Source: a virus. Taken from it: a stretch of DNA of 64,000 nucleotides. This document shows, in pieces, positions 3,850 through 22,046 of this stretch. The position numbers and the translations under genes were made by a program. The stretch is taken from IMG/VR virus record IMGVR_UViG_3300045988_176028. The stretch is one strand, 5' to 3'. The notes below the pieces were generated by a model, which worked only from the letters and a program-made list of their open reading frames with translations, did not search any database and was not told the DNA's origin. Each line of letters starts with the position of its first letter. Position 1 is the stretch's first letter.

Positions 3850-3871
3850 GTTCGTCTCCTTTATGAAAGAT

Positions 3872-3894: not shown

Positions 3895-4084
3895 GTGCAT
3901 GTTGGCTGAAATGCAAAAAACAAAAAGCCCCAACCCTCCTATCAGGAAGGTCAGGGCTTCTAATCTCAAAGAGATATCAGTCGTCGTTGCGGCGGACAGA
4001 ACGCTTCACTCCAATGAAACCGACACCCATCATTCACAGCCTTCGCCGCCGCCAATCGTCTTATCGACACACGCACGAACGCTT

Positions 4085-5842: not shown

Positions 5843-5916
5843 GTTCTCTCCTTTTAGCGTTTCTCTAGCACGTCCGGTAAGCCGTCCGAGCAGGATGGGT
5901 TTGCCGACTGATTGAT

Positions 5917-5939
5917 TTTGTGTAGACAATCCCAGTATA
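5917..5939 (-). promoter_or_regulatory. conserved promoter/operator motif, copy P4
   Basis: Gene-sense TATACTGGGATTGTCTACACAAA, 75 nt upstream of the ATG at 5842. Confidence 0.55.
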
Positions 5940-6053
5940 GATGTTTTTGGAAGAATCGTCAAAAACTATAACGCCAAGCAGACTACAGATACAGAAACCC
6001 CGGCCAACTAATCAAAAGAAAGGAAGGCCGGGGTCTCTAAGGTCAAAAGCCCA

Positions 6054-8717: not shown

Positions 8718-8829
8718 GATTATCTCCTTTGTTTGGTTTCTTTTCCACGTGTGGGGTGGACATTATATTATTTTATATTATCCCCCTTATTGAGGGTTCA
8801 TCCAACTCGCAAGGAAAACCCAAACGAGA

Positions 8830-10156
8830 GGAAAAGCGCCGTGACATTCTCCCCCCGCCTGTGGAGGCGGGGGCTTCCTGCTCAAGAACCCCAGTGGGTT
8901 CAGTATCGACAGGCTATCCCCACATGCCCTGTGGTTCGCACGATTTATGAGTCGTGCTACTCGATGATTCTCATTGCCTCATCCCGAATGTTTCGGGCGG
9001 CGTTCACGTCACGGTCATGCAACACTCCGCATGATGGGCACGCCCATTCGCGGATACTTAAATCCTTGACCAGAGGATTCTTGCAACCGCAGTCGTGGCA
9101 TAGTTGGCTGGATGGATACCATTTGTCCACATGAACCAACTGTTTGCCTTGACGGGCGAGCTTGTATTCCAACATGGTGCAGAACATGCCATACCCGTTG
9201 TCCGACGTGCTTTTAGCCAAACCTTTTCTGGCTTTGCGACCATTGGGGAGATAATGTCCCGGATGTTCGTAGTCTGGTTTCGGCTTGGGTTTCTTCATCA
9301 TGCTTTTCATGTTCAGAGTCTCCACGCCGACCATATCGTATGATGCGACAATCCTGTTGGCTTTCTTACGCTGGTAGTCGCGTCTCTGATTGGAGGTCTT
9401 CTCATACAGTCGGCCGACCCGCTTGCACTGTTTACGCCAGTTGGCGGAACCTTTGACCATATGGGAGAGCTTGCGTTGCTCTCTGGCGAGCTTGTCCTGC
9501 ATTTTCCGATAGTATCCCGGATATTCGGCGTGCTCCCCGTCACTGGAAACATACAGGCCGTGAGACGCGTAGTCCAATCCGACAGTCTTCACCGGCTTCA
9601 CTTTTTCGGGTATTTGGGTCTCGTACTCGAAAAGGATTGTCGCGGTGTATCTTCCGGAAGGGCAATGCTCCACGGTGACGGATTTCAGTTTCCAATCGTC
9701 GGGGATGTGCTTGTGTTGGCGTACCGCCAACCATCCGAGCTTGGGTAGTTTCAACCTCCTTGTCTTGTCATCCAATCTGATGTTGCCGTGGGACAGATTC
9801 GTCGTGTATGTCTTCCTGCCCCGACGTTTCGACTTGTATTTCGGAAAACCTGTTTTCCTGTCCTCGAAGAACCTCTTGTACGCCTTCTCCAATGCGAGTT
9901 GCGCGTTGCAAAGAGCGAAGCCATCCACCTCGCGCAGGAACGGATACGTGTCCTTGTACAAGGCTGGGGTGGGATAGCATGACTCCCAAGTGGTCTGATA
10001 GTGGGCGATGCGGGTTTCGAGCATGAGGTTGTATACGAACCTGACGCAACCGATGGTACGGTTTATCCGCCGTGCCTGTTCTTCGGTGGGGTAGGCGCGG
10101 AATCTGACCGCCGTATGGGCTTTCATACTTATGCCAGTCCTTTCTCGCTTTGGCTT
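8830..10156 (-). mobile_element. IS200/IS605-family element carrying only tnpB (IS1341-like); boundaries approximate
   Basis: The tnpB ORF is followed downstream by a structured region containing the GC hairpin CCCCGCC-TGTGGA-GGCGGGG (8851-8870). No tnpA is present. The ends are not defined by eye. Confidence 0.4.
8957..10126 (-). CDS. tnpB: TnpB (IS200/IS605 OrfB, RNA-guided RuvC-like nuclease family)
   Basis: 389 aa. N-terminus FRAYPTEEQ...I..T.GC.RFVYN is typical of OrfB. C-terminal zinc finger CHDCGC...CPSCG followed by DRDVNAARNI. Confidence 0.85.
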   Translation of the reverse strand: MKAHTAVRFRAYPTEEQARRINRTIGCVRFVYNLMLETRIAHYQTTWESCYPTPALYKDTYPFLREVDGFALCNAQLALEKAYKRFFEDRKTGFPKYKSKRRGRKTYTTNLSHGNIRLDDKTRRLKLPKLGWLAVRQHKHIPDDWKLKSVTVEHCPSGRYTATILFEYETQIPEKVKPVKTVGLDYASHGLYVSSDGEHAEYPGYYRKMQDKLAREQRKLSHMVKGSANWRKQCKRVGRLYEKTSNQRRDYQRKKANRIVASYDMVGVETLNMKSMMKKPKPKPDYEHPGHYLPNGRKARKGLAKSTSDNGYGMFCTMLEYKLARQGKQLVHVDKWYPSSQLCHDCGCKNPLVKDLSIREWACPSCGVLHDRDVNAARNIRDEAMRIIE

Positions 10157-10615
10157 TCAGAAGATATCCTCAACCAAAGAAGTCAACGACTTGCTTGTCT
10201 GGTTCAACTCCCAGAAGCCACGTTCAAATTTCTTGGCCAATTCCATGACCTGTTCGACCTTGTCGAGAAGTATCTTGGCGGACTTGTCAACAGCCTTGAA
10301 AGTGGTGATAGGCACACCATCCCGATACATGGGGATTCGGGCAGTCTCCGTGGGGATTCCAGCCGCGCTTCCATTGTCTCCAGCGTATTGCAGTGAGAGA
10401 TTGTAAGTGAGAGAGAAAGTAGCCTCCTTGACGTATCCTTCTTCGCCCCACATGCATAAGGTCATCTTCCAAGAGCGAGAGAAGGAACGTTCGGGATTGC
10501 AGACATGGCTTTTCGTCCAAACGTACTTGCCTTCCTTGGTGTTCCTTTGAAGGTAGGAAAGGTTTTCTCGGTCATTCCTTTTTTCGAACTCTTCGAGAGT
10601 GGTCTGCTTGTTCAT
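10157..10615 (-). CDS. hypothetical protein
   Basis: 152-aa ORF with promoter motif P5 28 nt upstream. Confidence 0.5.
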   Translation of the reverse strand: MNKQTTLEEFEKRNDRENLSYLQRNTKEGKYVWTKSHVCNPERSFSRSWKMTLCMWGEEGYVKEATFSLTYNLSLQYAGDNGSAAGIPTETARIPMYRDGVPITTFKAVDKSAKILLDKVEQVMELAKKFERGFWELNQTSKSLTSLVEDIF

Positions 10616-10642
10616 GGGTTTGCTCCTTTTTGATTTTCTGTT

Positions 10643-10665
10643 TTTGTGTGAACGATTTCAGTATA
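10643..10665 (-). promoter_or_regulatory. conserved promoter/operator motif, copy P5
   Basis: Gene-sense TATACTGAAATCGTTCACACAAA. Confidence 0.6.
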
Positions 10666-10685
10666 GCATAAAACCTTGGAGCAAA

Positions 10686-11363
10686 TCAACCCAAAGAAGC
10701 CAACTCCACCTCAATCCCTGCCAACTCCTCCAACAAACGCTTACGACGAGCCAACAACAGTCGTTTCCTGCGGACGCCATCGAAAACAGGCTGACCGGAA
10801 GCCACATCATGGGAGTTCACCATATTCCTGCCGGTGGGACTCCCATCTCGATTGTTCCCCAACATGGTCAAATCAGCCACGGTCAGCGAACCATTCCGAA
10901 AACTGAACCCGTTCTCGAACATCACATGTTCAAGCCGTGCGATGTTCAACGCTCCGAACTGGGGAACCGTGGTTCCACTACCGTATTTGATACGACGGGA
11001 TTCACGCAGTCGGGCAAGATAATGCAGAAACTGGGCCAAAGTCAGTTTGGTTAGTTTAGCCAACGAGCCGACGCCAATCGAATACAGTCGAATACGGAAA
11101 TCGGCATCCACTACTCCCTCACGATATAAGACGGAATCCTCCACCGGTCGAAAATCCATTTCGTTCTTCCGTAGACGGTTTCCGACGATACGGGCGCTGT
11201 CGGAGCCAAAGGAACCGACGAACTGCTCTTCGGTCAACGAGGTAATATCCCCGATGATGCGGAGTTTCCTTTTCATCTTGTTGACTCGGAACTTGTCACA
11301 GATTTGACCCCGCGCGTTGGTGAAGAGTTTTTCTATCGGGTCTAGGACGGTTAGCTCGCTCAT
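10686..11363 (-). CDS. hypothetical protein (second gene of the Cys-rich operon)
   Basis: 225-aa ORF, 70 nt downstream of the Cys-rich gene with no motif between them. Two LT..QF-type segments weakly resemble helix-hairpin-helix modules. Confidence 0.45.
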   Translation of the reverse strand: MSELTVLDPIEKLFTNARGQICDKFRVNKMKRKLRIIGDITSLTEEQFVGSFGSDSARIVGNRLRKNEMDFRPVEDSVLYREGVVDADFRIRLYSIGVGSLAKLTKLTLAQFLHYLARLRESRRIKYGSGTTVPQFGALNIARLEHVMFENGFSFRNGSLTVADLTMLGNNRDGSPTGRNMVNSHDVASGQPVFDGVRRKRLLLARRKRLLEELAGIEVELASLG

Positions 11364-11432
11364 GGTTCTTCTTCTCTCGTTTTTTGCATGCGGTAGAGGG
11401 TTCCAAGATTGCGGCCGGAATCCTCTTTAATA

Positions 11433-12032
11433 TCACAGATTCGCACTGTCGATGTTGTCGGCAAGGCAATCAGACAATCGGGCGTTTCCGCCTTGGGTCA
11501 GACGATAATGCTTGAGGAATCTGATTGCATCGTTGACTGTTACCAGTTGAGATGGCTTTGCGTAGTCCTTGTCCAGCGTGCGTTCCAATTCGCAGGTCTT
11601 GCATTCTCCTGCATCTCCAAGGCAGTCCTTGCAGAGTGTGCTACCACAGGTGTCGCACGTGTGCCTACAGGTTTTGTCGATGTATTTGCCGCAGTGTTCG
11701 CAACGTTTCCAGCAGTGGGCGCATTCCAAGGTGCCCTCGCAGTCTTCGCAGCTTGCGGCGTCATCGTCGCAGCAGTATGCGTCGCACTTGTCGCAGGAGT
11801 TCAGGCAATCTTTGCAGAACGTGTTGCCGCAGATGTTGCATCGTTCCGCGTATTTGTCGCAGACGATGTTGTCGCACTTGTAGCACAGGTGGCAGTGGTC
11901 GCAGCAGAAGACGCCTTCGCAGTTGGAGCACTGGTATAGGCAGTCTTCGCAATAGTTTTTGTGGCAGTGGTCGCAGGTGCCGTTGGCTATTGGATTGTTG
12001 AGGACGCAGTAGGAGCATTCGCAGTTGCTCAT
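11433..12032 (-). CDS. extremely cysteine-rich (multi-CxxC) protein, function unknown
   Basis: Start at ATG 12032 (MSNCECSYC...), after AAGGAGAAAAA. About 45 Cys in the first ~150 aa, arranged as repeated CxxC / CxxCxxxC units. The last ~45 aa are Cys-free. Confidence 0.6.
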   Translation of the reverse strand: MSNCECSYCVLNNPIANGTCDHCHKNYCEDCLYQCSNCEGVFCCDHCHLCYKCDNIVCDKYAERCNICGNTFCKDCLNSCDKCDAYCCDDDAASCEDCEGTLECAHCWKRCEHCGKYIDKTCRHTCDTCGSTLCKDCLGDAGECKTCELERTLDKDYAKPSQLVTVNDAIRFLKHYRLTQGGNARLSDCLADNIDSANL

Positions 12033-12067
12033 TTTTTCTCCTTGTTGGGTGTGGATTTCGACCCTTG

Positions 12068-12090
12068 TTTGTGTGGACGATTCCAGCATA
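12068..12090 (-). promoter_or_regulatory. conserved promoter/operator motif, copy P6
   Basis: Gene-sense TATGCTGGAATCGTCCACACAAA, 36 nt upstream of the ATG at 12032. Divergent from cas9. Confidence 0.55.
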
Positions 12091-12141
12091 CCACATAAAT
12101 AAGAGAATTAAGACAGCATGCCAAACAAGTCCCATCAATGA

Positions 12142-12168
12142 TATATATTGGACATGTCCACAAATAAA
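12142..12168 (+). promoter_or_regulatory. palindromic variant of the motif, plus-strand copy upstream of tracrRNA candidate and cas9
   Basis: TATATATTGGACATGTCCACAAATAAAA. It shares TTGGACATGTCCACA-ATAAAA with the copy at 58084-58108. The core TGGACATGTCCA is a perfect palindrome. Confidence 0.5.
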
Positions 12169-12242
12169 AAACCAAGCGCTGTTCGAAAAACGGAAACGAC
12201 ACGCCGGGGTTGCCAGAAGAACACTGTGTGTTATAGTGGGAA

Positions 12243-12331
12243 CCACGGCATATAGTTTAAACAAGTCCGGTGACAGACCGGAATTGACCGTAGAGCGGCG
12301 ATAGGACGCAAGTCCCAATCGCCGCTTTTTT
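12243..12331 (+). ncRNA. tracrRNA candidate A (anti-repeat + nexus-like hairpin + intrinsic terminator)
   Basis: CCACGGCATATAGTTTAAAC pairs over 17 positions (15 Watson-Crick, 2 G:U, 1 bulge) with the 5' end of the repeat read from the minus strand. It is followed by AAGTCCGG-TGACAGA-CCGGAATT, resembling the AAGGC..GUCCG nexus. The hairpin GAGCGGCGAT...ATCGCCGC plus TTTTTT ends at 12331, 30 nt before cas9. Confidence 0.5.
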
Positions 12332-12360
12332 AATGCAGTGCGGAAAGAGAACAACAGACC

Positions 12361-15300
12361 TTGACCGCAAAAACCAATATCCGCTATCGCGTGGGAGCTG
12401 ACGTAGGACTCAACAGTCTAGGATTCTCGGCAATCCAACTCGACGCCAACGGCAACCCAATCACACTACTCAAAACCCTCAGCTACATTCACGACGGCGG
12501 AGTAGACCCAACCCAAAACAAGTCCGGCACCACCCGCAAGGCCATGGCCGGAATCGCCCGACGTACCCGCAACATGCGCAAACGCCGCCGCCACCGTCTC
12601 AACCAACTCGACCGTCAGCTCTACCAACTGGGATATCCGGTGGACGAAGTGCCGGAAAGCGAACACGGACTCTACGAATACTGGAACGTCCGTTCCGCAT
12701 TGGCGACCGCCTACGTCCCCGACAAGGACAAGCGTGACCGGATGATGGTCATGGCTATCCGACATATCGCACGCCATCGCGGTTGGCGCAACTCCTATAG
12801 TCGGGTCGAAACCCTGTTCGAGGACGTGGAGCCGTCCGACCAGTACAAGGATTTGAAACAGCGAGTGGAGACCCGTCTTGGAATGAAACTAGACGAGGAT
12901 ATGACCCCGGCGCAACTCGTCGCATTGACGCTTTCAGACCGTGATGAGAACTTCATGAGGGTTCGTACCAGCACAAAATACGGTGAGGGTGTTCTGCCAA
13001 GCCGTCTCATGCAGTCCGACAATGCGCGTGAACTCCGACGCATCTTCACCGTCCAGCAAGTGCCCGAGGACGTTTGGAAGCCCATCCTGCGTACCGTGTT
13101 CCACTGCGCATCCCCCAAGGGTTCCGCAGAGAAGCATGTCGGAACAGACCCGCTCGACCAGACCCAGAAGAGAGCGTTGAAGGCCAGCATCGCCTTCCAG
13201 AAGTACCGTATCCTCAACGTCATCACCAACCTGCGTATCCGACGCAAAGGCGAAGCATCCCGACCGTTGACCGTCAACGAGAAACAGGATGTATACGAAC
13301 TGCTCACCACCGCCAAGGAAGACTTGGAATGGTTGGACGTGTGCGCCGTGCTTGACATCGAACGCAACGAACTCAAAGGCGTCGGCACCCTCACCCATGA
13401 CGGGGAGGAAAGAATCGGTAACAAGCCACCCGTCTTGGACACTGTCATCCGACTCCACGGCATCAAAAACACCAAGCTCCGCAAGATGATGGACGCATGG
13501 TGGAACACGGCCACCGAGACCGAACAGGCCGCGATGATTCGACTCCTGTCCAACACGGTTGACTTGGACAAGGTGCGCGACCTCATCGAATACGCCTCCC
13601 CCATCGAATTCATCGACGGGTTGGACGAAGACCTGCTCACCCCGTTGGACTCCATCAGTCTTCCAGTCGGACGTGCCGCCTACTCCGAAAAAACCCTCAC
13701 CCGACTGTCCAAACGCATGTTGGAAACGGAAGATGATTTGCATTATGCGATTCGCCACGAGTTCAACGTGCCCGCAGACTGGAAGCTTCCGGTTCCACCT
13801 GTTCAGGAGCCGACCGGCAATCCTGCCGTTGACCGAGTGTTGAAAGCGTTCAACCGTTTCCTCAGCCAGTGCGAACAACAGTATGGCATTCCGGAAAGCA
13901 TCGCCATCGAAACCACGAAGGAATCGTTCTCGTCCATCGCGTTCGGACGCACGCTCGACTATGAGCGCCGTCAACGTCGGGACAAGGACAATCAGACGCG
14001 TGCCGCAATCCGTGAGGATATGAGGAAGCAACTGTCCAACGGCGGAAGCTTCAAAGTCCACGACTACGACATTCGCCGTTGGGAAATCGTCCAATCGCAG
14101 AACAACACATGCCTGTACTGTGGTGCGACCAGTCCACGATTCAGTTTCGATAAGTCGGAACTCGACCATATCGTTCCCCGTCGTGGTGTCGGTTCGGACA
14201 GCAAACGCACCAACATGGCCGCAGTATGCCCCGAATGCAATGCCAACAAGTCGAACATTCCGTTCGCCGTCTGGGTGCATTCCGACTATGCGAAAGCGCA
14301 CGGCATCACCATGAATGATGTCATCGCACGAGTGAACCAGCTGATGTTCCCACCATCCATGAACCGCAAGCAGGTCAGTCAGGTGAAAAAGGCCATCATC
14401 AGCCGACTCAAGCAGACCGAACAGGACGAGCCGTTGGACAATCGTTCCATCGAATCCGTGGGCTGGATGGCCGACGAACTCCACCGCCGACTCGATGGAC
14501 GATACGCCAACAAAACGGTGAAAGTGTCCACGTTCCCCGGCTCCATCACCTATGAGGCGCGACGCGCTTCCGGCATCGACGGGCAAATCCACTTCATCGG
14601 CGCACAGTGGAAGACCCGACTCGACCGCCGACACCATGCGGTTGACGCTTCGGTCATCGCCATGATGAACCAGAGTGTCGCTCTCCGTCTTGCCGAACGC
14701 CACTATCTACGCGAATCCCAACGCCTGTGCGGGACCCCGTTCGGACAGGCGGACTGGAAGCAGTATCCGAATGAGAACACTCCCGGCTACGACCAATACC
14801 AGCAATGGAGCGGACAGATGAAGAATCTGCTCCACCTGTTGAACAAGGGTTTGGACGAGGACACCATTCCGGTCGTTCGGAGCCGCCGCCTCCGCTTGGG
14901 CAACAGCACGGCGCATGATGCGACGGTGAAACCGTTGCAATACGTGCGACTGGGAGACGCCATGCCGACCAGTCTCATCGACCATGCGCTCACCCCGCAA
15001 GTGTGGAAGGCATTGACCGGATTGTCGGATTATGACCCTCAGAATGGTCTGCCCGCTAATCCGAAACGTGTCATCACAGCCTTGGGTGAAGTATGCCATG
15101 CGAAGGATGAAATCGGTTTCCTTCCGGGCAACAATGCCCAATTGTTCGTCAACGGTGGAGCCGCCGATATTGGCGGAACCATCCATCATGCCCGTATCTA
15201 CCGTTGCGAACAGGTGTTGAAGAACGGGAAACGCAAGACGTTCTATGGCATGGTGCGCGTGTTCCAATGCGATTTGATGAAACGCAGGAAGAACACCGAC

Positions 15301-15687
15301 CTGTTCCGAACCCCGTTACATCCCGCCGACGTGTCCATCCGGTATGCGGACGGCAAGGTCAGGGACGCCATCCGACAGGGACACGCAACCTGCATCGCAC
15401 GACTCACCGTCAACGATGAAATCAAGTTGACACCTGAGATGATGAGGGACATGTGTCCTGAATATGCGAACATGTTCCACACAGATTCCGGCGTCGAACG
15501 ACGATTCATCGTGGCCGGCTTCCCCTCCCCTATCCAGTTCAGACTAGTTCCCTCCGTCATTGCAGAAGAAGGATTAAGTAAGATGGTTGAACAAGGTTTG
15601 GAGGTTCCCCCCAAGGTCGAGAAGATGTTCAAACTGCACACCTTCGTTCCAGTGGTCAATAAGATTGGACATGTTTTAGAGCAGTAA
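12361..15687 (+). CDS. cas9: Cas9, type II-C (actinobacterial-size, 1108 aa)
   Basis: RuvC-I motif YRVGADVGLNSLGFSAI. Arg-rich bridge helix GIARRTRNMRKRRRHR. HNH motif ELDHIVPR...CPECNANKSN. RuvC-III motif RRHHAVDASVIAM. Followed directly by cas1 and cas2, with no csn2 or cas4. Confidence 0.95.
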   Translation: MTAKTNIRYRVGADVGLNSLGFSAIQLDANGNPITLLKTLSYIHDGGVDPTQNKSGTTRKAMAGIARRTRNMRKRRRHRLNQLDRQLYQLGYPVDEVPESEHGLYEYWNVRSALATAYVPDKDKRDRMMVMAIRHIARHRGWRNSYSRVETLFEDVEPSDQYKDLKQRVETRLGMKLDEDMTPAQLVALTLSDRDENFMRVRTSTKYGEGVLPSRLMQSDNARELRRIFTVQQVPEDVWKPILRTVFHCASPKGSAEKHVGTDPLDQTQKRALKASIAFQKYRILNVITNLRIRRKGEASRPLTVNEKQDVYELLTTAKEDLEWLDVCAVLDIERNELKGVGTLTHDGEERIGNKPPVLDTVIRLHGIKNTKLRKMMDAWWNTATETEQAAMIRLLSNTVDLDKVRDLIEYASPIEFIDGLDEDLLTPLDSISLPVGRAAYSEKTLTRLSKRMLETEDDLHYAIRHEFNVPADWKLPVPPVQEPTGNPAVDRVLKAFNRFLSQCEQQYGIPESIAIETTKESFSSIAFGRTLDYERRQRRDKDNQTRAAIREDMRKQLSNGGSFKVHDYDIRRWEIVQSQNNTCLYCGATSPRFSFDKSELDHIVPRRGVGSDSKRTNMAAVCPECNANKSNIPFAVWVHSDYAKAHGITMNDVIARVNQLMFPPSMNRKQVSQVKKAIISRLKQTEQDEPLDNRSIESVGWMADELHRRLDGRYANKTVKVSTFPGSITYEARRASGIDGQIHFIGAQWKTRLDRRHHAVDASVIAMMNQSVALRLAERHYLRESQRLCGTPFGQADWKQYPNENTPGYDQYQQWSGQMKNLLHLLNKGLDEDTIPVVRSRRLRLGNSTAHDATVKPLQYVRLGDAMPTSLIDHALTPQVWKALTGLSDYDPQNGLPANPKRVITALGEVCHAKDEIGFLPGNNAQLFVNGGAADIGGTIHHARIYRCEQVLKNGKRKTFYGMVRVFQCDLMKRRKNTDLFRTPLHPADVSIRYADGKVRDAIRQGHATCIARLTVNDEIKLTPEMMRDMCPEYANMFHTDSGVERRFIVAGFPSPIQFRLVPSVIAEEGLSKMVEQGLEVPPKVEKMFKLHTFVPVVNKIGHVLEQ

Positions 15688-15708
15688 CCACCGCTTCTAA
15701 TCGTTTCT

Positions 15709-15766
15709 AAAAAGGAAAGGGTCTACCAAAAACCATCTAAGGTTATCAGTAGACCCTTTCCTTTTT
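15709..15766. terminator. strong inverted repeat between cas9 and cas1 (terminator/attenuator-like)
   Basis: AAAAAGGAAAGGGTCTAC ... GTAGACCCTTTCCTTTTT: an 18-bp perfect stem with a 22-nt loop and a T-run, placed directly before the cas1 RBS AGGAGG. Confidence 0.6.
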
Positions 15767-15777
15767 AGGAGGTTGAT

Positions 15778-16668
15778 ATGGCAAAAGGGTGGCGAGTCAT
15801 CGACTGCACCGCAATGACCGGCAGACTGACCTACAAGCGCGGACAACTCGTCGTGGAACACCACGATACGGAGACGCGGATACCGTTGGCCGATACGGCG
15901 GTGCTGCTGCTCGGTATACAAACAACCGTCTCCACAGCACTATTGCAGCAATTGGCGGTCTTCGACGTGGAAGTGCTCATCTGCCAATGGAATCAGACAC
16001 CAATCGCGGCAATGCAATCATGGAACAAACCCAACACCCGTTCCGCCGCCCGTCAGAACGCACAACAGGAAATGAGCCTACCGGCAAGAAAAGCCGCATG
16101 GCAGAAAATCATACGAGCGAAAATACTAGGACAATCCCACGTACTCGACAAACTCAACTTGGACGGAGGGGAACTCTTAAGAAGTCTAGCCGTCCAAGTC
16201 CACTCCGGCGACCCGAACAACATCGAAGGACAGGCGGCACGCGAATACTGGCATCACATGTTCTCTGAAGAACAATTCCGCCGATTCCCCGGATATGGCG
16301 AAGGGCACAACGCTCAACTCGATTACGCGTACACGGTACTGCGTGGATTCCTGATTAAGTCCATCTGCACAGCGGGACTCTCCCCCACCATCGGCATACA
16401 TCACCATTCAGCCAGCAACTATTTCTGTCTGGCAGACGATTTGATAGAACCGTTCCGACCGGCCATCGACTACCAGATAAGCCAACTACCGGACGGACCG
16501 TTGGACTCGGAAATGAAACAGCAGATAGTGCTGTCCGTCAACAGCCAATTCAACCCAAAAGAACTAACCATCCCATCACTGGTGGACGAATTTTGTGGAC
16601 AATACGCGCAATACTGCGAAGGCTGGCTGGACAAACTACCCGTCCCCGTCTTCGGAAAAAGGCGCTAA
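15778..16668 (+). CDS. cas1: Cas1 integrase
   Basis: 296 aa. Motifs NIEGQAAREYW, NAQLDYAYTVLRG and GIHH....N.F.LADDLIEPFRPAID are typical of type II Cas1. Confidence 0.92.
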   Translation: MAKGWRVIDCTAMTGRLTYKRGQLVVEHHDTETRIPLADTAVLLLGIQTTVSTALLQQLAVFDVEVLICQWNQTPIAAMQSWNKPNTRSAARQNAQQEMSLPARKAAWQKIIRAKILGQSHVLDKLNLDGGELLRSLAVQVHSGDPNNIEGQAAREYWHHMFSEEQFRRFPGYGEGHNAQLDYAYTVLRGFLIKSICTAGLSPTIGIHHHSASNYFCLADDLIEPFRPAIDYQISQLPDGPLDSEMKQQIVLSVNSQFNPKELTIPSLVDEFCGQYAQYCEGWLDKLPVPVFGKRR

Positions 16669-16670
16669 AA

Positions 16671-17012
16671 ATGAAGAGAGATAAGGATAACGGCATGTGG
16701 ACGCTGGTCATGTACGACCTACCCATTACAACGAGAGAGGATGCGGGAGCCGCGAACAGATTCAACCATCTACTCTCTGATTTAGGTTTCGTTCGAGTGC
16801 AATATTCCGTCTATGCAAGATATACCCCCACCCAATCAGGCGGTCGTTCTGCGTTAAAGTATATTCAAGCCGGACTACCTCCCCACGGCAACGTGCGAGT
16901 ACTCTGCGTAACGGACAATCAATGGTCTGATTCACTGAAGTACATCGATAAAAAACAGCAGACCACAGACGAACAGCCGGGGTTACTGACGCTTTTTGAC
17001 GACGAAGAATAG
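16671..17012 (+). CDS. cas2: Cas2
   Basis: ATG is 2 nt after the cas1 stop. MWTLVMYDLP...RF...L...GF.RVQYSVY matches the Cas2 ferredoxin-fold N-terminus. An alternative start at 16695 is possible. Confidence 0.85.
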   Translation: MKRDKDNGMWTLVMYDLPITTREDAGAANRFNHLLSDLGFVRVQYSVYARYTPTQSGGRSALKYIQAGLPPHGNVRVLCVTDNQWSDSLKYIDKKQQTTDEQPGLLTLFDDEE

Positions 17013-17033
17013 TTTAAAAACGTTGATATGAAG

Positions 17034-17066
17034 CCTTTTGCCCAAACTCGTAGTTTGAGCAAAAGG
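17034..17066. repeat. 15-nt inverted partial repeat forming a hairpin with the first CRISPR repeat
   Basis: CCTTTTGCCCAAACT-cgt-AGTTTGAGCAAAAGG. The single non-Watson-Crick position is a G:U pair only in minus-strand RNA. The left arm is the exact complement of the repeat variant at 17501. Confidence 0.6.
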
Positions 17067-17716
17067 TAATACGACATATATTCAAACCTGTTCGCCATAT
17101 GCTATCGTAAGAGTGAGTTTGAGCAAAAGGTAATACGACATATATTCAAACTGATGTCGCACGCGGATTAACGCTCTGGAGTTTGAGCAAAAGGTAATAC
17201 GACATATATTCAAACCACAAGCACACTGAATGTACGTCGTTGAAGTTTGAGCAAAAGGTAATACGACATATATTCAAACTTCAAAAATGGCTATTTTCCA
17301 ACGTTTTAGTTTGAGCAAAAGGTAATACGACATATATTCAAACTGTCCAGTGATTTCCCTCTCCTCACCGGAGTTTGAGCAAAAGGTAATACGACATATA
17401 TTCAAACTAAAAATGAAAGGATTGAAGAAAACATAAGTTTGATTAAAAGGCAATACAACATATATTCAAACCAAAACGGGAACAGGCATTGAACGGTGGG
17501 AGTTTGGGCAAAAGGTAATACGACATACATTCAAACTGCGAGTTTCCCTTCAGTGTGATTAAAAGGCAATACGACATATATTCAAACTGAAGCATTCAGT
17601 GCTTACGCGTCCGAAAAGTTTGAGCAAAAGGCAATACGACATATATTCAAATCAGGCTGCATATTTTCGTCAAAATCGACAAGTATAAATAAGGAAAATA
17701 CGACATATATTCAAAC
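17052..17716. CRISPR. CRISPR array: 11 repeats of 36 bp, 10 spacers
   Basis: Consensus AGTTTGAGCAAAAGGTAATACGACATATATTCAAAC. Repeats start at 17052, 17116, 17180, 17244, 17308, 17372, 17436, 17501, 17552, 17617 and 17681. Spacers are 28-29 nt, except a 15-nt spacer at 17537-17551. Repeats 7-11 carry substitutions and the last is degenerate in its first 18 nt. The pairing logic suggests crRNAs are read from the minus strand. Confidence 0.95.
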
Positions 17717-17847
17717 AAAAATTCAAACAAAATACCTAACAAAGAATAAGCCGGTGTTTCGCCACTCCCACCGGCGAGGAGCTGTTCACACAAAGACGCG
17801 GAGTAGGAGAAGGGTGGAGAGAAAAACACCCGTAGACTCCGCTTTTT
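17681..17847 (+). ncRNA. degenerate terminal repeat plus structured tail (alternative tracrRNA candidate B, or array trailer)
   Basis: The last 20 nt of the repeat are retained exactly (AATACGACATATATTCAAAC). They are followed by an A-rich linker, the hairpin GCCGGTG...CACCGGC, a GCTGTTCACACAAAG motif fragment, and the terminator hairpin GCGGAGT...ACTCCGC plus TTTTT (17798-17847). Confidence 0.3.
17798..17847 (+). terminator. intrinsic terminator downstream of the CRISPR array
   Basis: GCGGAGT-(loop with inner stem GGGTG/CACCC)-ACTCCGC followed by TTTTTG. Confidence 0.6.
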
Positions 17848-18053
17848 GTTTGGCGTTTGACATGGCTTGGTTGTTTCCCATCAGTGAGTTCATGTCGTGA
17901 ACACTGGCATGTATGCGTGAGTCAAGAGGGTGCAAGGCATACGGCTTGCTGACAGTCCTTCATGGATTTCAGGATTGTCGTCCATCGCGCATGTGAGAGT
18001 CATGCCATGGATTGTCCCACGAGCTTTAGGGGTATAAAAAGTGTGGGACTTTG

Positions 18054-18125
18054 TGCGGGAGACGAGATTCGAACTCGCGATACTTGCTTGGAGGGCAAGG
18101 GTGATGACCTTTTCACTACTCCCGC
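18054..18125 (-). tRNA. tRNA-Gly (anticodon UCC), non-canonical C33
   Basis: Hand-folded cloverleaf. Acceptor GCGGGAG/CTCCCGC, T-arm GCGAG-TTCGAAT-CTCGT, anticodon arm CTTGC-CCTCCAA-GCAAG. CCA is not encoded. Confidence 0.7.
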
Positions 18126-18244
18126 AATAGGAGGGGATGGATTGTGTTTGCGGGCTGGAAAGCACTACATGCAGAGAAAAAATGTTTACGACCATTCCAA
18201 ACTATTATGGGATGGAAGACTCGCAATCAGAAACCCATTCCCAG

Positions 18245-18332
18245 CGGAGTCGGAGGGATTCGAACCCTCGAACCGTATGAAACGGTTAACACCTTAGCAG
18301 GGTGCCCCTATCGGCCACTCAGGCACGACTCC
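18245..18332 (-). tRNA. tRNA-Ser (anticodon GCU), long variable arm
   Basis: Acceptor GGAGTCG/CGACTCC, anticodon loop CTGCTAA, variable arm AACCGTTTCATACGGTT, T-arm GAGGG-TTCGAAT-CCCTC. Confidence 0.8.
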
Positions 18333-18371
18333 GAAGTTTCGACACGCCAAAAACAGCCGGTCGAAACTTAG

Positions 18372-18442
18372 CTCCCCATGATGGACTCGAACCACCTCTA
18401 AAGGTTCCAAAGACCCGTGTGCTGCCATTACACTAATGGGGA
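18372..18442 (-). tRNA. tRNA-Gln (anticodon UUG)
   Basis: U1:A72 with G73 discriminator, as in bacterial tRNA-Gln. Anticodon loop CTTTGGA, T-arm GGTGG-TTCGAGT-CCATC. One mismatch at the top of the anticodon stem. Confidence 0.7.
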
Positions 18443-18474
18443 ATGTGCAGACCGTTTTGACGGCCCGCGAATAA

Positions 18475-19320
18475 TTATTTGGATTTTGAAATCAGCTTGT
18501 CAATGTCCGCGCCCAACTGCCTTAACTGGGCGAAAGAGTTGGCGACGTTGTTTTGCGCCGTTTCCTCTCTCTGCTGAGCGGCTTCCATCAGCTTCTTGCT
18601 GTTCGCATCCAATTCGGCGGCATGCTGTTCAGCCTTCTTGGTTCGGAGGTCGATTTCCTGTGACGCCTTGTCCAAACGGTTGACTGCGTCAGCTTCCGCC
18701 TTGCTGATAATCTGTTCGGCTTGTTTCTTGGCCGCGTCCAACTGGATGGCAACCTTATCGTCGGTTTCCTTTTTCAGTTTGGCGCATTCCTGTTCAAGCT
18801 TCTGCTTCTTATCCTGTGCGGCGGTCATCATCTGTCTGGTGGTTTCCGTCGCGGAGTCGAGCCGCTTCTGGGATTCATCCTTGGCCTGTTGGAGAATCTG
18901 TTCGGCTTGCGTGCGGGCCTGTTCCAGCTCCTCACGTTTCTTCGACTCGTAAGTGTTTTTCAACGTTTGGAATTCTTTGCCGAGGCTGGTGCCTAATTCC
19001 TGCATCGGGTTTTCCGACGCTTGACGGGCGTCCTGCAAGTCGGCGTTCAACCGTTCAATCTGCTGGCGGAGGGATTCAGCTTCCTGCTCCCGTTTGCCGA
19101 GTTCGGATTGACGCTTGTCCAAGACCATGTTTTTTTCCGTTAACTGGCGTTGCAGATTCCAAATCTGTGTTTCCAACCCGTTCACGTACTGTTCAACGGA
19201 ATCCTTGCGATAACCGTTGAATCCGGTGGGGAGGTTGAGTGGTTGTACCTGTGGCTGGGTCATTCCTTCCACGGTGAGAGCGTGGGAGGAGATGACCCGT
19301 GTTTCATCAGACATGGTCAT
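18475..19320 (-). CDS. DivIVA-domain coiled-coil protein
   Basis: Start at ATG 19320 (MTMSDETRV...). N-terminal LPTGFNGYRKDSVEQYVNGLETQI matches the DivIVA signature F...RGY....V..F. The rest is a long heptad coiled coil. The longer ORF, which starts at 19713, runs over three tRNA genes and is rejected. Confidence 0.7.
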   Translation of the reverse strand: MTMSDETRVISSHALTVEGMTQPQVQPLNLPTGFNGYRKDSVEQYVNGLETQIWNLQRQLTEKNMVLDKRQSELGKREQEAESLRQQIERLNADLQDARQASENPMQELGTSLGKEFQTLKNTYESKKREELEQARTQAEQILQQAKDESQKRLDSATETTRQMMTAAQDKKQKLEQECAKLKKETDDKVAIQLDAAKKQAEQIISKAEADAVNRLDKASQEIDLRTKKAEQHAAELDANSKKLMEAAQQREETAQNNVANSFAQLRQLGADIDKLISKSK

Positions 19321-19355
19321 TTTGAGTTCCTTCTTTTCTGGTTGAAAAACACGAG

Positions 19356-19428
19356 AGCCTAGAGCGGGGGTCGAACCCGCGACCTTCTGTTCCGGAGACA
19401 GACGCTCTATCCACTGAGCTATCAAGGC
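19356..19428 (-). tRNA. tRNA-Arg (anticodon CCG)
   Basis: D-arm GCTC-AGTGGATA-GAGC, anticodon arm TCTGT-CTCCGGA-ACAGA, T-arm GCGGG-TTCGACC-CCCGC. One U:U mismatch in the acceptor stem. Confidence 0.75.
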
Positions 19429-19485
19429 GATGGGGCGAAACCTATGGGGAATCGCCACTGTAAAGGAAGAACCATTCATGGTTCG

Positions 19486-19568
19486 TGCTTCGGGAGGGAA
19501 TCGAACCCTCACGTCAATATGACAAAGCTTTTTGAGAGCTTCGCGTTTACCTGTTTCGCCACCGAAGC
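19486..19568 (-). tRNA. tRNA-Leu (anticodon CAA), long variable arm
   Basis: Acceptor GCTTCGG/CCGAAGC, anticodon arm AAGCT-CTCAAAA-AGCTT, variable arm GTCATATTGAC, T-arm GAGGG-TTCGATT-CCCTC. Confidence 0.8.
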
Positions 19569-19686
19569 GGGATGAGCCTCCGCAGAGGCTCAGCAGACCG
19601 TTCCCGCGACTGGGCGGGTCGGCTGAAAACTGGAACCGCCATGAGACGGCTCCGAAGCCTTCTCGAACAACCTGTAAGAGAAGTAG

Positions 19687-19757
19687 TATGTCACGCTGGA
19701 ATCGAACCAACATCTACGGTTTTGGAGACCGTGGCTCTACCGTTGAGCTAGTGACAT
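19687..19757 (-). tRNA. tRNA-Trp (anticodon CCA)
   Basis: Acceptor ATGTCAC/GTGACAT, anticodon arm ACGGT-CTCCAAA-ACCGT, T-arm GTTGG-TTCGATT-CCAGC. Confidence 0.75.
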
Positions 19758-20022
19758 ATGGGGTGGGCTACCAACGTAGACGCCACCCTCTCGTTGTCCT
19801 GTAGTTAGCGTCCAAGTCCAACTCGATAGACGCGGCATGGCGGGTTGGATTTTACCGCCAACGGCAAGGTCGTGGGCTGCTAAGTACCCCGTTTCACCGT
19901 TCTTCCCCTTCGGTCATCAACCACCTGATTAAGGCAGGGAAACTCTTATCCTCCACAAGACCATGTAGGATTATTCGAGCAATGCCATCAGTTTCACGGA
20001 CAGCTACCTCCATGAAACCTAG

Positions 20023-20096
20023 CACCCAAGGTTGGAGTCGAACCAACGACGTCCGGTTTAGGAAACCGGCGCTCTATTCCGCTGAGCTACAAGGGT
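20023..20096 (-). tRNA. tRNA-Arg (anticodon CCU), acceptor stem with two U:U mismatches
   Basis: D-arm GCTC-AGCGGAATA-GAGC, anticodon arm CCGGT-TTCCTAA-ACCGG, T-arm GTTGG-TTCGACT-CCAAC. Acceptor ACCCTTG/CTTGGGT pairs at only 5 of 7 positions. Confidence 0.6.
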
Positions 20097-20316
20097 GTAT
20101 GTCTCCGTTCCGCGAGGACACCCGCAACGCGTCTTCCGGATTGGAGTCATTCACATCAGCCGTTCGCTACTTACCATTGTTGCGGGGCAATGGCTTTCTC
20201 TAATGGGATGATGGTGTTTTACGCGCATTCCACGCGGACGCTTTTAATTGCCCATCCAATACGACGAGCCACAGGATTACACTCCCGATTTCCCGCAGTT
20301 ACGCCAACTGCGGTCG

Positions 20317-20389
20317 TGCCCCCCGTGGGATTCGAACCCACAACCCACGACTTAAAAGGACGCTGCTCTAACCATTGAGCTAGAGGGGC
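20317..20389 (-). tRNA. tRNA-Lys (anticodon UUU)
   Basis: Acceptor GCCCCTC/GGGGGGC, D-arm GCTC-AATGGTTA-GAGC, anticodon loop CTTTTAA, T-arm GTGGG-TTCGAAT-CCCAC. One mismatch in the anticodon stem. Confidence 0.75.
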
Positions 20390-20459
20390 GGAACAGGAGG
20401 TGAAGGAACGAAAACCCACCTCCCGCTTGGATTAGTTAAAGGAGAACCATCAAGGTTCG

Positions 20460-20543
20460 TGCTCCGAGAGAGATTTGAACTCTCACACCTTTTCAGGTAA
20501 AGCATTTTGGGTGCTTCGCGTCTACCGATTTCGCCATCAGAGC
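20460..20543 (-). tRNA. second tRNA-Leu-like gene (anticodon CAA), non-canonical C33, long variable arm
   Basis: Acceptor GCTCTGA/TCGGAGC, anticodon arm AAGCA-CCCAAAA-TGCTT, variable arm ACCTGAAAAGGT, T-arm GAGAG-TTCAAAT-CTCTC. Confidence 0.65.
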
Positions 20544-20808
20544 GTCGCGCGATTGAGGGACGTGCGTTTTCGTTCTTACAGAACGACCCATTGATTTTCG
20601 TACCACCCTCCCCGCTTACAAATCAACAAAAGTCAGAGATTGGAGGAAACTGATTTTTTGTTTACAAAGTTTTTCCTTCAAGTTTGGAGAGTCTGTTTTG
20701 CAGGAGTCGCTTAGCACGCACATCAGTTTCCTCTATTTAGAGTTTGGATAAAAGCCCGTAAGGCAATTATCCAAACATTGTTTTGAATACGGTATGCATT
20801 CAAAATCG

Positions 20809-21177
20809 TGGAGCCGGAGGGAATCGAACCCTCGTCCTTGAAAACGTTGATGATGTTTTCTACATGTTTAGCCATCTCATTTATATATGTTGAAAGTTCC
20901 AGTCGAAGAGGCACCCCGGAACAGTTTTGCAACTCAGTCATGAAACGATGAACAGTTGCCGTTCACCGAGTTTTTGCTGTCCTTTCTTTTTCAGAATCGC
21001 CTTACAGCAAATCAGTGACCCTGTTCTTCCTTCACCGTGTTTCAGGCGGCGAGCTGGAAGTTACGCGAAGAATTCGTCTTGGCGTTTATTGTTTGACATG
21101 GATTGATGACGGTTGTCCACGTCAGCCTCCGACATGCTTGCATTATCTTGATTTTCAAGTCGAAACCTGTCGGCCCC
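20809..21177 (-). ncRNA. ssrA: tmRNA (ssrA)
   Basis: 5' end GGGGCCGACAGGTTTCGAC. 3' end GGACGAGGGTTCGATTCCCTCCGGCTCCA. The acceptor stem GGGGCCG/CGGCTCC carries the G3:U70 alanine identity pair. Internal tag frame GCC AAG ACG AAT TCT TCG CGT AAC TTC CAG CTC GCC GCC TGA encodes AKTNSSRNFQLAA plus stop. About 369 nt. Confidence 0.85.
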
Positions 21178-21773: not shown

Positions 21774-22046
21774 ATGCAGTCCAAGCAAATACGAGAAGCA
21801 ACCACAGTCGCATATATAGAAGACCAGCTCAAGTCGGAAGACCCCACTCTCATACAGTCGGCCACGGGGAATCTAGCCAGACTGTATGGAATGACCACGC
21901 TCTCCCAACTGACCGGTTTGGCGAGGCCATCCCTCTACCGAAGCCTATGCGGTCAAGGAAACCCATCCTTCCAAACCATGTGCAGGGTATTGGACGCCAT
22001 GGGGTACACAGTCACGGTGAAGCGTAAGGAGACGGAACATGAGTGA
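21774..22046 (+). CDS. HigA/addiction-module-antidote-like HTH protein (no toxin partner seen)
   Basis: 90 aa. ...LARLYGMTTLSQLTGLARPSLYRSLCGQGNPSFQTMCRVLDAMGYTVTV matches the antidote-family pattern (G..R..LY+.L...GNP.F.T...VL.A.G). Overlaps the repA start in ATGAGTGA. Confidence 0.55.
   Translation: MQSKQIREATTVAYIEDQLKSEDPTLIQSATGNLARLYGMTTLSQLTGLARPSLYRSLCGQGNPSFQTMCRVLDAMGYTVTVKRKETEHE

Follow-up and report, generated by a model that had tools for sequence, protein, structure and literature searches.

In the chromosomal type II-C system of Bifidobacterium bombi, the tracrRNA is encoded upstream of cas9 on the plus strand and the PAM is NNG (PMC4521832). In Neisseria meningitidis and Campylobacter jejuni, transcription of the arrays runs against that of the cas operon, and repeat degeneracy predicts the wrong orientation for them (PMC3737331). 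[quoted passage not shown] 2022, PMC9071438). The type I-E system of the Bifidobacterium breve plasmid pMP7017 is transcriptionally silent in culture (PMC10832533), which means that plasmid-borne systems in this family can be dormant.

Here we describe a complete type II-C CRISPR-Cas9 locus on a large plasmid, with cas9, cas1, cas2 and an 11-repeat array, in a 64-kb stretch of DNA (the window; Table 1). Type II-C is new for the pMP7017-like plasmid family because pMP7017 itself carries type I-E. On sequence and comparative grounds, we consider it very probable that the locus belongs to the actinobacterial Cas9 branch as an ordinary and probably functional type II-C system, seated beside the tRNA, tmRNA and repA genes of a distant pMP7017 relative.

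Table 1. Features of the locus and its surroundings, in window coordinates
Feature	Position	Strand	Details
pMP7017-family promoter motif	12137-12172	+	core TATATTGGACATGTCCACA at 12144-12162; -10 TATATT at 12144-12149
Conserved box GACACGCCG	12198-12206	+	possible regulator site; directly 5' of the tracrRNA -35 region
Putative tracrRNA promoter, sigma-70-like	12210-12237	+	TTGCCA-16-TGtTATAGT; TG-extended TATAGT
tracrRNA, ~88 nt	12244-12331	+	from duplex, fold, conservation and covariance model; 5' end inferred from the promoter
Anti-repeat	12245-12262	+	bulged G12255; G:U at 12248 and 12258
AAG and nexus-like hairpin	12266-12282	+	
Terminator hairpin	12295-12325	+	followed by U6 at 12326-12331
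cas9 RBS GGAAAGAG	12343-12350	+	
cas9	12361-15687	+	1108 aa; TTG start; TIGR01865, 193 bits
cas1 (type II)	15778-16668	+	TIGR03639 cas1_NMENI, 233 bits
cas2	16671-17012	+	TIGR01573, 52.9 bits; start ATG 16671 or 16695
Conserved stretch from cas2 to first repeat (AAAAACGTTGATATGAAGC...)	17013-17051		kept in L001-L007 and L010
CRISPR array	17052-17716	-	11 repeats of 36 nt, 64-nt period; 10 spacers
Spacer 2	17152-17179	-	28/28 match in an Eco57I-type methylase gene of a small integrative element
Terminator after array, GC hairpin then TTTTTGTTT	17796-17852	+	conserved in L001 and L010; function inferred
9 tRNAs and tmRNA	18053-21177		860 nt from repA

The cas operon, the array and the carrier

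The first-pass annotation had reported cas9 with intact RuvC I/III and HNH motifs, cas1, cas2 and eleven repeats, with neither csn2 nor cas4, and each of these points holds. In Cas9, RuvC-I (VGADVG, D14), RuvC-II (IAIETT, E517), HNH (ELDHIVPR/CNANKSN, D602/H603 and N627) and RuvC-III (RRHHAVDA, H758/H759 and D762) are all intact. The best match among solved structures is AnaCas9 (4OGC, E = 6e-210), and CdiCas9 (6JOO, E = 2e-194) is also among the closest, both over nearly the full length. The protein is 81-99% identical to the Cas9 of a clade found only in metagenomes and 48-49% identical to chromosomal Cas9 of Bifidobacterium; a survey of 185,579 species-representative genomes yielded no close relative. 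Between cas9 and the array there are no ORFs other than cas1 and cas2 (the product of the latter being 105-113 aa long in relatives), and no ORF for csn2 (II-A) or cas4 (II-B) lies within or adjoining the cas operon. ORFs upstream of the operon gave no Pfam match.

The first repeat stands 40 nt past cas2. The six cas2-proximal repeats are identical and the last five of the eleven, at the far end, are mutated; in the crRNA sense (minus strand) the repeat reads GTTTGAATATATGTCGTATTACCTTTTGCTCAAACT. Spacers are 28-29 nt long, except for one cut to 15 nt. The stretch between cas2 and the first repeat is a probable leader for spacer integration, since it is conserved, the repeats adjoining it are perfect and a shared old spacer is distal, the single spacer common to the related loci L001 and L010 being found at a distal position in L010. 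Sequence and comparative evidence point to the cas2-proximal end as the place where new spacers would be inserted. Related plasmids with the same repeat have nearly wholly different spacer sets, and acquisition therefore appears to be recent.

Judged by its genes, the carrier is a large Bifidobacterium plasmid distantly related to pMP7017. The window RepA is 56% identical over 88% of the protein to pMP7017 RepA, a verified replicase (B7017_p0146), and two further RepA_C paralogues, an FtsK-like ATPase and a large isopeptide adhesin are encoded in the window. A manA motif scores 39.6 bits, below the Rfam threshold of 55.2, with E = 7e-8. No partition genes were identified in the 64-kb window, and its lineage is absent from PLSDB.

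A tracrRNA gene in front of cas9

The RNA gene at about 12244-12331(+) is almost certainly a tracrRNA, since it precedes cas9 in all of ten related metagenomic loci (L001-L010), where changes in the repeat are matched by changes in its anti-repeat and compensatory substitutions are seen in its first hairpin. The plus strand at 12243-12262 reads CCACGGCATATAGTTTAAAC, and the pairing proposed earlier with nucleotides 1-17 of the minus-strand repeat was reproduced: 15 Watson-Crick pairs, 2 G:U pairs (U12258 and G12248) and the bulged G12255. Cofolding of repeat and anti-repeat, one of the suggested checks, gave -20.5 kcal/mol for the tracr(+)/crRNA(-) duplex and -12.2 kcal/mol for the opposite strand combination. 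The nexus-like hairpin described after the anti-repeat is likewise in place, followed by the linker AUUGACCGUAGA and by the GC hairpin and U6, ending at 12331, 29 nt before cas9. The 3' part (hairpin and terminator) folds with -33.7 kcal/mol (z = -6.3). A covariance model of the tracrRNA matches this site only within the window. Rfam returned no match at 12000-18000 even at E <= 1; this is not counted against a tracrRNA because Rfam holds no model for the tracrRNAs of this clade.

On the window sequence alone, the 17-bp match to the repeat does not exceed chance expectation. In a G:U-tolerant local alignment, the site scores 27, a value exceeded at three other positions and equalled at about nine, and the scores of 30 shuffled repeats are 26-35; by plain identity to the repeat, 12243-12262 falls outside the top ten matches in the window. 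The significance of the element comes instead from its position, its downstream structure and the comparison with related loci. The first-pass annotation had taken the G:U asymmetry between the strand combinations as a sign of selection at the RNA level. The asymmetry is true in the window but weak alone, as the match is at chance level and relatives with all-Watson-Crick pairing show none.

Across the related loci, anti-repeat classes track repeat classes. The window has CATATAGTTTAAAC with ...CATATATTCAAAC, L001 has CAAGCTTCAATC with ...GCAGTCTTCCAATC, L006 has ...GTTCGAAC with ...TCCGAAC, and L008 has AGACATATAGTTCAAAC with AGACATATATTCAAAC. Between the two repeat classes, cognate duplexes range from -16.5 to -22.4 kcal/mol, against -7.4 to -11.9 for non-cognate ones; within the ATATAT class, duplex energies do not separate the window from L006 and L008. 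In near-identical loci, the anti-repeat is the sole part of the element that changes, and it does so to fit the new repeat. Additionally, pairing of the nexus hairpin is preserved by double changes in L007 and L008. Because the repeat is complementary to a plus-strand tracrRNA, the crRNAs must, on this pairing, come from the minus strand; the crRNA orientation opposite to the cas genes that had been proposed is further supported by the co-variation in the ten relatives.

The tracrRNA would start at about 12244 because a sigma-70-like promoter stands directly upstream, with 10 of 12 matches and a TG before the -10 box, which is kept as TAT(A/C)GT in all relatives. The box GACACGCCG occurs once in the window, and each of the ten relatives, even the divergent L008, has it in the corresponding position. 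Further upstream lies a palindromic motif, previously considered specific to this element and a possible driver of both tracrRNA and cas9. It matches the published 34-bp motif AWAYATGYTATACTGAATATGTCCACATAAAAWA of pMP7017 (PMC10832533). Its core occurs 10 times in the window (0.05 expected) and three times near repA of pMP7017, and the motif is conserved upstream of cas9 in L001-L007, L009 and L010. A long transcript that crosses the tracrRNA gene and continues into cas9 probably starts from it, so the proposed role may stand for cas9 and a long tracrRNA form; the tracrRNA, however, also has a promoter of its own.

Taken together, sequence and comparison suggest that a tracrRNA of about 88 nt is made from its own promoter and stops at the strong terminator. 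Since no promoter was found between this terminator and the cas9 start codon, cas9-cas1-cas2 would depend on read-through transcription that starts at the tracrRNA promoter and/or the plasmid-family motif. The array would be read from the minus strand toward cas2, yielding crRNAs composed of a spacer and GUUUGAAUAUAUGUCGU..., whose duplex with the anti-repeat is predicted to have lower and upper stems of 7 and 10 bp separated by a one-base bulge. Cas9 loaded with crRNA:tracrRNA would then cleave matching DNA beside a 3' PAM, and the system may serve the plasmid against rival mobile elements.

Spacer targets and alternative readings

The perfect match of spacer 2 was found in 11 human-gut metagenome contigs, and in none of them do repeats flank the matching site. 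The target island resides in Bifidobacterium chromosomes of the B. pseudolongum group, has a GC content of 50% and encodes an integrase, Rep_OBD, an AAA/FtsK-like ATPase and an Eco57I/BsuBI restriction-modification pair. A spacer of L010 matches the same island at 25 of 28 positions, with every mismatch PAM-distal. In the minus-strand model, both protospacers have G at PAM position 3, and the 3' PAM of the window Cas9 is possibly NNG, as judged from two protospacers of two different Cas9 variants with differing C-terminal domains. The spacer search that had been suggested thus yielded one protospacer and no target for the other eight of nine full-length spacers. The first-pass annotation had viewed the system as a weapon between mobile elements. 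At least one spacer is indeed aimed at a small integrative element carrying restriction-modification, but no window spacer matched the phages and plasmids searched.

A locus complete in sequence could still be dormant or decaying, carried along without being expressed or acquiring spacers. The five degenerate repeats and the truncated spacer, the eight spacers of no known target, the untranscribed type I-E array of pMP7017 in culture and the relative L008, which has lost cas1 and retains two repeats, all lend themselves to this reading. We nevertheless regard it as unlikely, given the intact catalytic motifs, the identical cas2-proximal repeats, the spacer turnover among same-repeat plasmids and a perfect match to an element circulating in gut samples. 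More doubtful still is a phage-borne Cas9, with a very large phage or a phage-plasmid as the carrier in place of a conjugative plasmid. The tRNA array and tmRNA, a Gp2.5-like single-strand-binding protein in the window and T4-type RNA ligase and kinase genes upstream in relatives are common in huge phages; however, pMP7017 has the same tRNA, tmRNA and RNA ligase content, and the window RepA resembles the experimentally verified replicase of this conjugative plasmid. Moreover, the large ORFs of the 64-kb window include no capsid, portal, terminase or tail family, the sole structural-type match being a weak tape-measure hit (E = 5e-4), and 50,697 phage records showed no similarity to the window beyond one tRNA. 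RepA and these negative results bear out the earlier description as plasmid-like DNA.

Two other readings concern the RNAs. If the array were transcribed from the plus strand like the cas genes, it would pair with a different tracrRNA and the upstream element would be something else. The repeats degenerate far from cas2, which is the promoter-distal end in most CRISPR types, and a plus-strand terminator stands between the array and the minus-strand tRNA operon. Promoter-like sites within the window repeats are on the plus strand only (TTGAGC-16-TATATT in each intact repeat); nothing convincing as a minus-strand array promoter was found in the window, and no conserved one is evident within its repeats. 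This plus-strand site is, however, absent from the L001 and L006 arrays; L001, L006 and L010 have a TATACT box in every repeat. Outside the array, complements to the 5' part of the plus-strand repeat are chance matches inside genes only, changes in the upstream element follow those of the repeat in a way that demands minus-strand crRNAs, and degeneracy is misleading about orientation in N. meningitidis and C. jejuni too (PMC3737331). We therefore hold plus-strand transcription to be very improbable. Slighter yet is the chance that the conserved RNA is only a 5' leader or attenuator of cas9 with an accidental resemblance to the repeat. The chance-level match within the window would fit it, as would a terminator lying 29 nt ahead of the start codon; with no promoter between the two, it acts as a gate on cas9 transcription. 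Yet near-identical loci differ in the anti-repeat alone, changed to fit a new repeat, and the order of anti-repeat, AAG-hairpin, linker and terminator is that of tracrRNAs across the clade. The attenuator and tracrRNA roles are compatible, not mutually exclusive.

Comparison with known systems

The tracrRNA in front of cas9 with a minus-strand array, the reading preferred here, is the rule in this Cas9 clade and not unusual. Chromosomal type II-C loci of Bifidobacterium and other Actinomycetota (B. bombi, Briner et al. 2015, PMC4521832; L011-L090) have the same order cas9-cas1-cas2-array, and about 40 of 66 with arrays share the layout of the window. Their tracrRNA is encoded on the cas9 strand, 100-250 nt upstream of that gene, with a -10 box 7-8 nt before the anti-repeat, an AAG-hairpin nexus and a terminator directly before cas9, and their repeats are also 36 nt long. 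The short anti-repeat matches the cas-distal end of the plus-strand repeat, and crRNAs would therefore be minus-strand in the chromosomal loci and the window alike. In contrast, their Cas9 shares only 48-49% identity with that of the window, their repeats are unrelated in sequence, the covariance model of the window tracrRNA found no match in 40 chromosomal loci, and the window is set apart by its 28-nt spacers and plasmid carrier.

By precomputed Pfam assignments, the Cas9 proteins of Actinomyces naeslundii (4OGC/4OGE) and Corynebacterium diphtheriae (6JOO) have the same domain set as the window Cas9, although they are from other species and chromosomal. In the type II-C systems of N. meningitidis and C. 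jejuni, too, the array is read against the direction of the cas genes, and new spacers appear to be inserted at the downstream end with respect to crRNA transcription; their Cas9 proteins have low similarity to that of the window (E ~1e-17). Each repeat in these two species reportedly carries its own promoter (Zhang et al. 2013; Dugar et al. 2013).

The RepA proteins of pMP7017 and its B. longum homologues (Bottacini 2015; Dineen 2024, PMC10832533) are 53-56% identical to the window RepA. As in the window, pMP7017 has a tRNA array, tmRNA and manA motif beside repA and on the opposite strand to it, the 34-bp promoter motif and RNA ligase genes nearby (on the window side, in relatives), and its size is similar to that of the relatives' contigs (202-217 kb). 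It differs in its type I-E system, in its tmRNA tag (AKTNSSRNFQLAA in the window against ANTVSSSRFTLAA) and in its nucleotide sequence, which shows no similarity except at an IS200/IS605 end. As for plasmid-encoded CRISPR-Cas in general (PMC9071438), the only target found here is another mobile element and not a virus; the differences lie in a Cas9 effector and in a target that is integrative instead of being a plasmid.

The cas locus and the assignment of its tracrRNA

The proteins encoded by the locus exceed the cut-offs of the NCBIfam models for type II Cas9, type II Cas1 and Cas2, and the RuvC-I, RuvC-II, HNH and RuvC-III motifs of Cas9 are all intact. Neither csn2 nor cas4 was found at the cas9 locus, which is assigned to type II-C by its gene content. 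In the array, the six repeats nearest cas2 are identical to one another, the five distal repeats carry substitutions, and one spacer is shortened to 15 nt. A spacer common to two related loci is the fourth in L001 and distal in L010. The pristine cas2-proximal repeats and this distal position therefore indicate that new spacers enter next to cas2, where the crRNA transcription unit would end.

Features of the window and of the spacer 2 target island
Feature	Position	Strand	Remarks
TnpB, IS200/IS605 family	8957-10126	-	
Palindromic family motif (core)	12144-12162		faces cas9; sixty-odd nt upstream of the tracrRNA promoter
cas9	12361-15687	+	1108 aa; TTG start after RBS GGAAAGAG
cas1	15778-16668	+	
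cas2	end at 17012	+	
CRISPR array	17052-17716		eleven 36-nt repeats, 64-nt period
Nine tRNAs and tmRNA	18053-21177	-	tmRNA tag AKTNSSRNFQLAA; directly beside the array
manA RNA motif	19829-20000		below Rfam threshold (39.6 bits vs 55.2; E = 7e-8)
RepA	22039-23094		56% identical to pMP7017 replicase, 53% to replicases of the B. longum homologues
Surface protein/isopeptide adhesin	38158-45990	-	2610 aa; nine Spy0128-like isopeptide domains
21-bp tandem repeat	54135-54208		3.5 copies; AT-rich dip (GC 0.43), just upstream of the RepA_C paralogues
Two adjacent RepA_C paralogues (ORFs)	54396-55304, 55401-56291		
FtsK/SpoIIIE-like ATPase	62132-63979	-	
Target island, ~7.5 kb (loci L102-L105)	about 6400-13600		
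Target island (locus L091)	2100-9300		

The first-pass annotation had proposed a tracrRNA upstream of cas9 that pairs with the repeat read from the minus strand. Its candidate sequence agrees with the window, and positions 12245-12262 do pair with nt 1-17 of the minus-strand repeat through 15 Watson-Crick and two G:U pairs, with one bulged G. Cofolding, which it had suggested as a check, gave a duplex of -20.5 kcal/mol, against -12.2 in the opposite strand combination. A promoter scan located TTGCCA, a 16-nt spacing and a TG-extended TATAGT at 12210-12237, and the transcript is therefore predicted to start near 12244. The 3' part (12263-12331) forms a 6-bp hairpin right after AAG and a long GC hairpin with U6, and its fold has a z of -6.3 against shuffles.

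The repeat/anti-repeat match is nevertheless not above chance in the window alone, and the window by itself is no proof of a tracrRNA. By plain identity the site falls outside the top ten matches to the repeat; in a G:U-tolerant alignment it scores 27, with three other positions higher, several tied, and shuffled repeats reaching 26-35. A duplex-energy scan of the whole window for anti-repeats did not discriminate either, GC-rich gene segments outscoring the true site, and Rfam holds no family matching the tracrRNA or the repeat. Because the alignment scans remained at chance level, we no longer counted the in-window match as evidence and turned to related loci instead.

Relatives of the window Cas9 at 81-99% identity came exclusively from metagenome assemblies, where their contigs reach 217 kb, and one cluster of the clade has about 2,000 member sequences. 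We retrieved ten loci of this clade (L001-L010), and in every one of them the tracrRNA element precedes cas9 at the equivalent position, by 21-29 nt. From AAG to U6 the scaffold of L001 is identical to that of the window; the anti-repeats differ (CATATAGTTTAAAC in the window, CAAGCTTCAATC in L001), and the repeats differ correspondingly (...CATATATTCAAAC and ...GCAGTCTTCCAATC). Two more matched repeat/anti-repeat pairs come from L006 and L008. Between the two repeat classes, cognate duplexes range from -16.5 to -22.4 kcal/mol and non-cognate ones from -7.4 to -11.9; within the ATATAT class, which includes the window, L006 and L008, the window repeat pairs no less well with the anti-repeats of L006 and L008 (-18.6 and -17.4 kcal/mol) than with its own (-17.9). 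Pairing in the first hairpin is maintained by double substitutions in L007 (CCAG/CTGG) and L008.

As far as sequence can carry it, this comparative evidence settles the tracrRNA assignment. Since the anti-repeat has the sense of the plus-strand repeat and both promoter and terminator are on the plus strand, the crRNAs are predicted to be minus-strand transcripts. The structural reading of the first-pass annotation was thus correct, on the basis of the comparison and not of the in-window match. The G:U asymmetry that it had taken as a sign of selection on the RNA is true for the window but absent in relatives whose pairing is entirely Watson-Crick.

The relatives also differ in ways that touch the rest of the locus. 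Nucleotide identity between the window and L001 is 87-98% upstream of cas9 and across the larger part of the gene, and falls to 68-82% in the presumed PAM-interacting 3' end of cas9 and to 70-81% in cas1 (15301-17716 compared); their repeats and anti-repeats are of different classes. This pattern suggests that the PAM domain, the adaptation genes and the repeat/anti-repeat were exchanged as one module. In the GC-rich relative L008 (2183-6000; Cas9 84% identical), cas2 follows cas9 directly without cas1, only two repeats are present, one of them degenerate, and a Fic-domain gene lies upstream. This locus has the appearance of a reduced form that no longer acquires spacers but has retained a matched tracrRNA. 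Divergent from the tracrRNA/cas9 promoter region of the window is an ORF of 218 aa (11433-12089, minus strand), extremely cysteine-rich with many CxxC pairs and without a Pfam match; several relatives have ORFs of similar size at the same position.

Expression of cas9 and the array

No promoter-like site was found by the promoter scan between the tracrRNA terminator and cas9, from which we infer that cas9 must depend on read-through. The palindrome upstream, described by the first-pass annotation as an element-specific motif, is real, but it had already been published as the 34-bp motif lying over the -10 box of highly expressed genes of the Bifidobacterium breve megaplasmid pMP7017 (Dineen et al., PMC10832533). 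Its core occurs ten times in the window against 0.05 expected and is also present near repA of pMP7017; the copy before cas9 is conserved in most relatives and could yield a longer transcript whose 5' part would include the tracrRNA. A GACACGCCG box (12198-12206) shortly before the tracrRNA -35 region on the plus strand occurs once in the window and is kept in all ten relatives, including L008. It may be a regulator site; a role as a Cas9 self-target, like that of the long tracrRNA form in S. pyogenes, was set aside for want of a consistent PAM.

The window repeats are without the TATACT box present in those of L001, L006 and L010, and no convincing minus-strand promoter was found at the distal end of the array. 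Read-through from the minus-strand tRNA operon is possible, the array being immediately downstream of it. Plus-strand promoter-like sites within the window repeats were discarded as array promoters, as they are not conserved in relatives. A non-coding stretch of ~300 nt (17740-18052) separates the array from tRNA-Gly; L001 and L010 conserve it well, and L006 in part. The advantage of its minus-strand fold over shuffles is only modest (z = -2.2), and it has no Rfam match.

Spacer targets, carrier replicon and significance

In the spacer search suggested by the first-pass annotation, the 48 spacers of the window and three relatives had no match in 50,697 phage or 72,556 plasmid records; one target, an integrative element, was found elsewhere. 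The 22-nt seeds of eight window spacers had no match in IMG/VR, and against the window and related loci the spacers gave weak partial matches only. A metagenome scan run with spacer 2 alone returned 28/28 matches in eleven human-gut contigs, without repeats beside the match. The protospacer lies inside an Eco57I-type methylase gene, on an island that also encodes a tyrosine integrase, a Rep_OBD protein, an AAA/FtsK-like ATPase, an HTH protein and a BsuBI/PstI-type endonuclease. As a gene set this resembles the small integrative conjugative elements known from actinomycetes. The island, of 50% GC, is flanked by the ATP synthase operon and by sugar-utilisation genes in chromosomes whose AtpA is 96-98% identical to that of the B. 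pseudolongum group. Spacer 13 of L010 agrees at 25/28 positions with the ATPase gene of this island, and all three mismatches are PAM-distal if the crRNA is a minus-strand transcript. Read in crRNA sense, the protospacers are followed on the 3' side by CTGTTTAAAG (spacer 2) and CCGTCATAAA (L010 spacer 13), both with G at position 3; these two sites, from two Cas9 variants, provisionally indicate an NNG-type PAM, as in B. bombi.

The tRNA and tmRNA genes raised the possibility that the carrier is a huge phage. This was rejected, as no virion genes were found among the large ORFs of the window and RepA points to pMP7017, in which tRNA array, tmRNA and repA follow one another in the same order, an RNA ligase is close by, and the tRNA, tmRNA and manA set is published. 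The carrier is best placed in the pMP7017 megaplasmid family, on a deep branch. Counting repA, the window has three RepA_C genes, and the tandem repeat beside two of them looks like an iteron-type origin; the adhesin and the FtsK-like ATPase would fit Gram-positive conjugation and adhesion functions. At the nucleotide level the carrier is absent from PLSDB and the phage collection, and its only link to cultured bacteria is the 160 nt adjoining TnpB, an IS end 89-91% identical to B. longum megaplasmids. Whereas pMP7017 carries a type I-E system, the window carries type II-C, which is new cargo for this family; class 2 systems are reported to be poorly represented on plasmids (PMC9071438).

The proposal that the system is a weapon between mobile elements is consistent with the spacer 2 target, although this is no proof. 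A broader account, which we consider rather unlikely, combines a Cas9 wired into the plasmid regulon, modular swaps and warfare between mobile elements. Here cas9 would be expressed only by terminator read-through from the family motif, coupling tracrRNA and Cas9 at levels set by a plasmid regulator. Repeat/anti-repeat, cas1-cas2 and the end of Cas9 that contacts the PAM would move together, as one module, between otherwise near-identical plasmids, insulating each plasmid's system from the II-C system of the host and from the systems that rivals carry. It would be directed at small integrative elements whose restriction systems would otherwise keep the plasmid out.

What is new is the Cas9/tracrRNA lineage, its home on a pMP7017-like megaplasmid, and a first target, an integrative element with a restriction-modification system. 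For a Cas9 clade so far seen only in gut metagenomes, a well-supported guide-RNA design is now available (crRNA, tracrRNA and provisional NNG-type PAM); a candidate sgRNA would consist of spacer, GUUUGAAUAUAUGUCGU, GAAA and 12245-12331. The enzyme can thus be tested directly and might serve for editing bifidobacteria. In addition, the pMP7017 family is broader than its cultured examples and able to carry type II-C besides type I-E, and the locus is a specific instance, open to testing, of a plasmid-borne Cas9 directed against an integrative element bearing restriction-modification genes.

Comparison with other type II-C systems

A Cas9 alignment scanned against 185,579 species-representative genomes gave 80 loci with at most 49% identity, all of them from Actinomycetota and mostly Bifidobacteriaceae. 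An array is present in 66 of these loci; in about 40 of them, the closest counterpart of the repeat beyond the array is on the cas9 strand, 100-250 nt upstream of that gene, and corresponds to the last ~15 nt of the plus-strand repeat. By eye, the chromosomal loci share the order of -10 box, 7-8 nt, 13-18-nt anti-repeat, AAG, hairpin, TTGA(A/T)TGCT and terminator, and in Corynebacterium cas9 starts only about 20 nt past the terminator. A covariance model of the tracrRNA had no match in 40 chromosomal II-C loci, and homology to their tracrRNAs rests on this layout by eye, not on the model.

The tracrRNA position and opposite array orientation, singled out by the first-pass annotation as unusual, prove to be standard for actinobacterial and other II-C systems, and the known working of such systems is unchanged by the window locus. 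In B. bombi, for which an NNG PAM is reported, the II-C tracrRNA is "upstream of the 5' end of cas9 on the positive strand" (Briner et al., PMC4521832). The arrays of N. meningitidis and C. jejuni are transcribed opposite to the cas operon, and repeat degeneracy mispredicts their orientation (Chylinski et al., PMC3737331), as it does for the array in the window.
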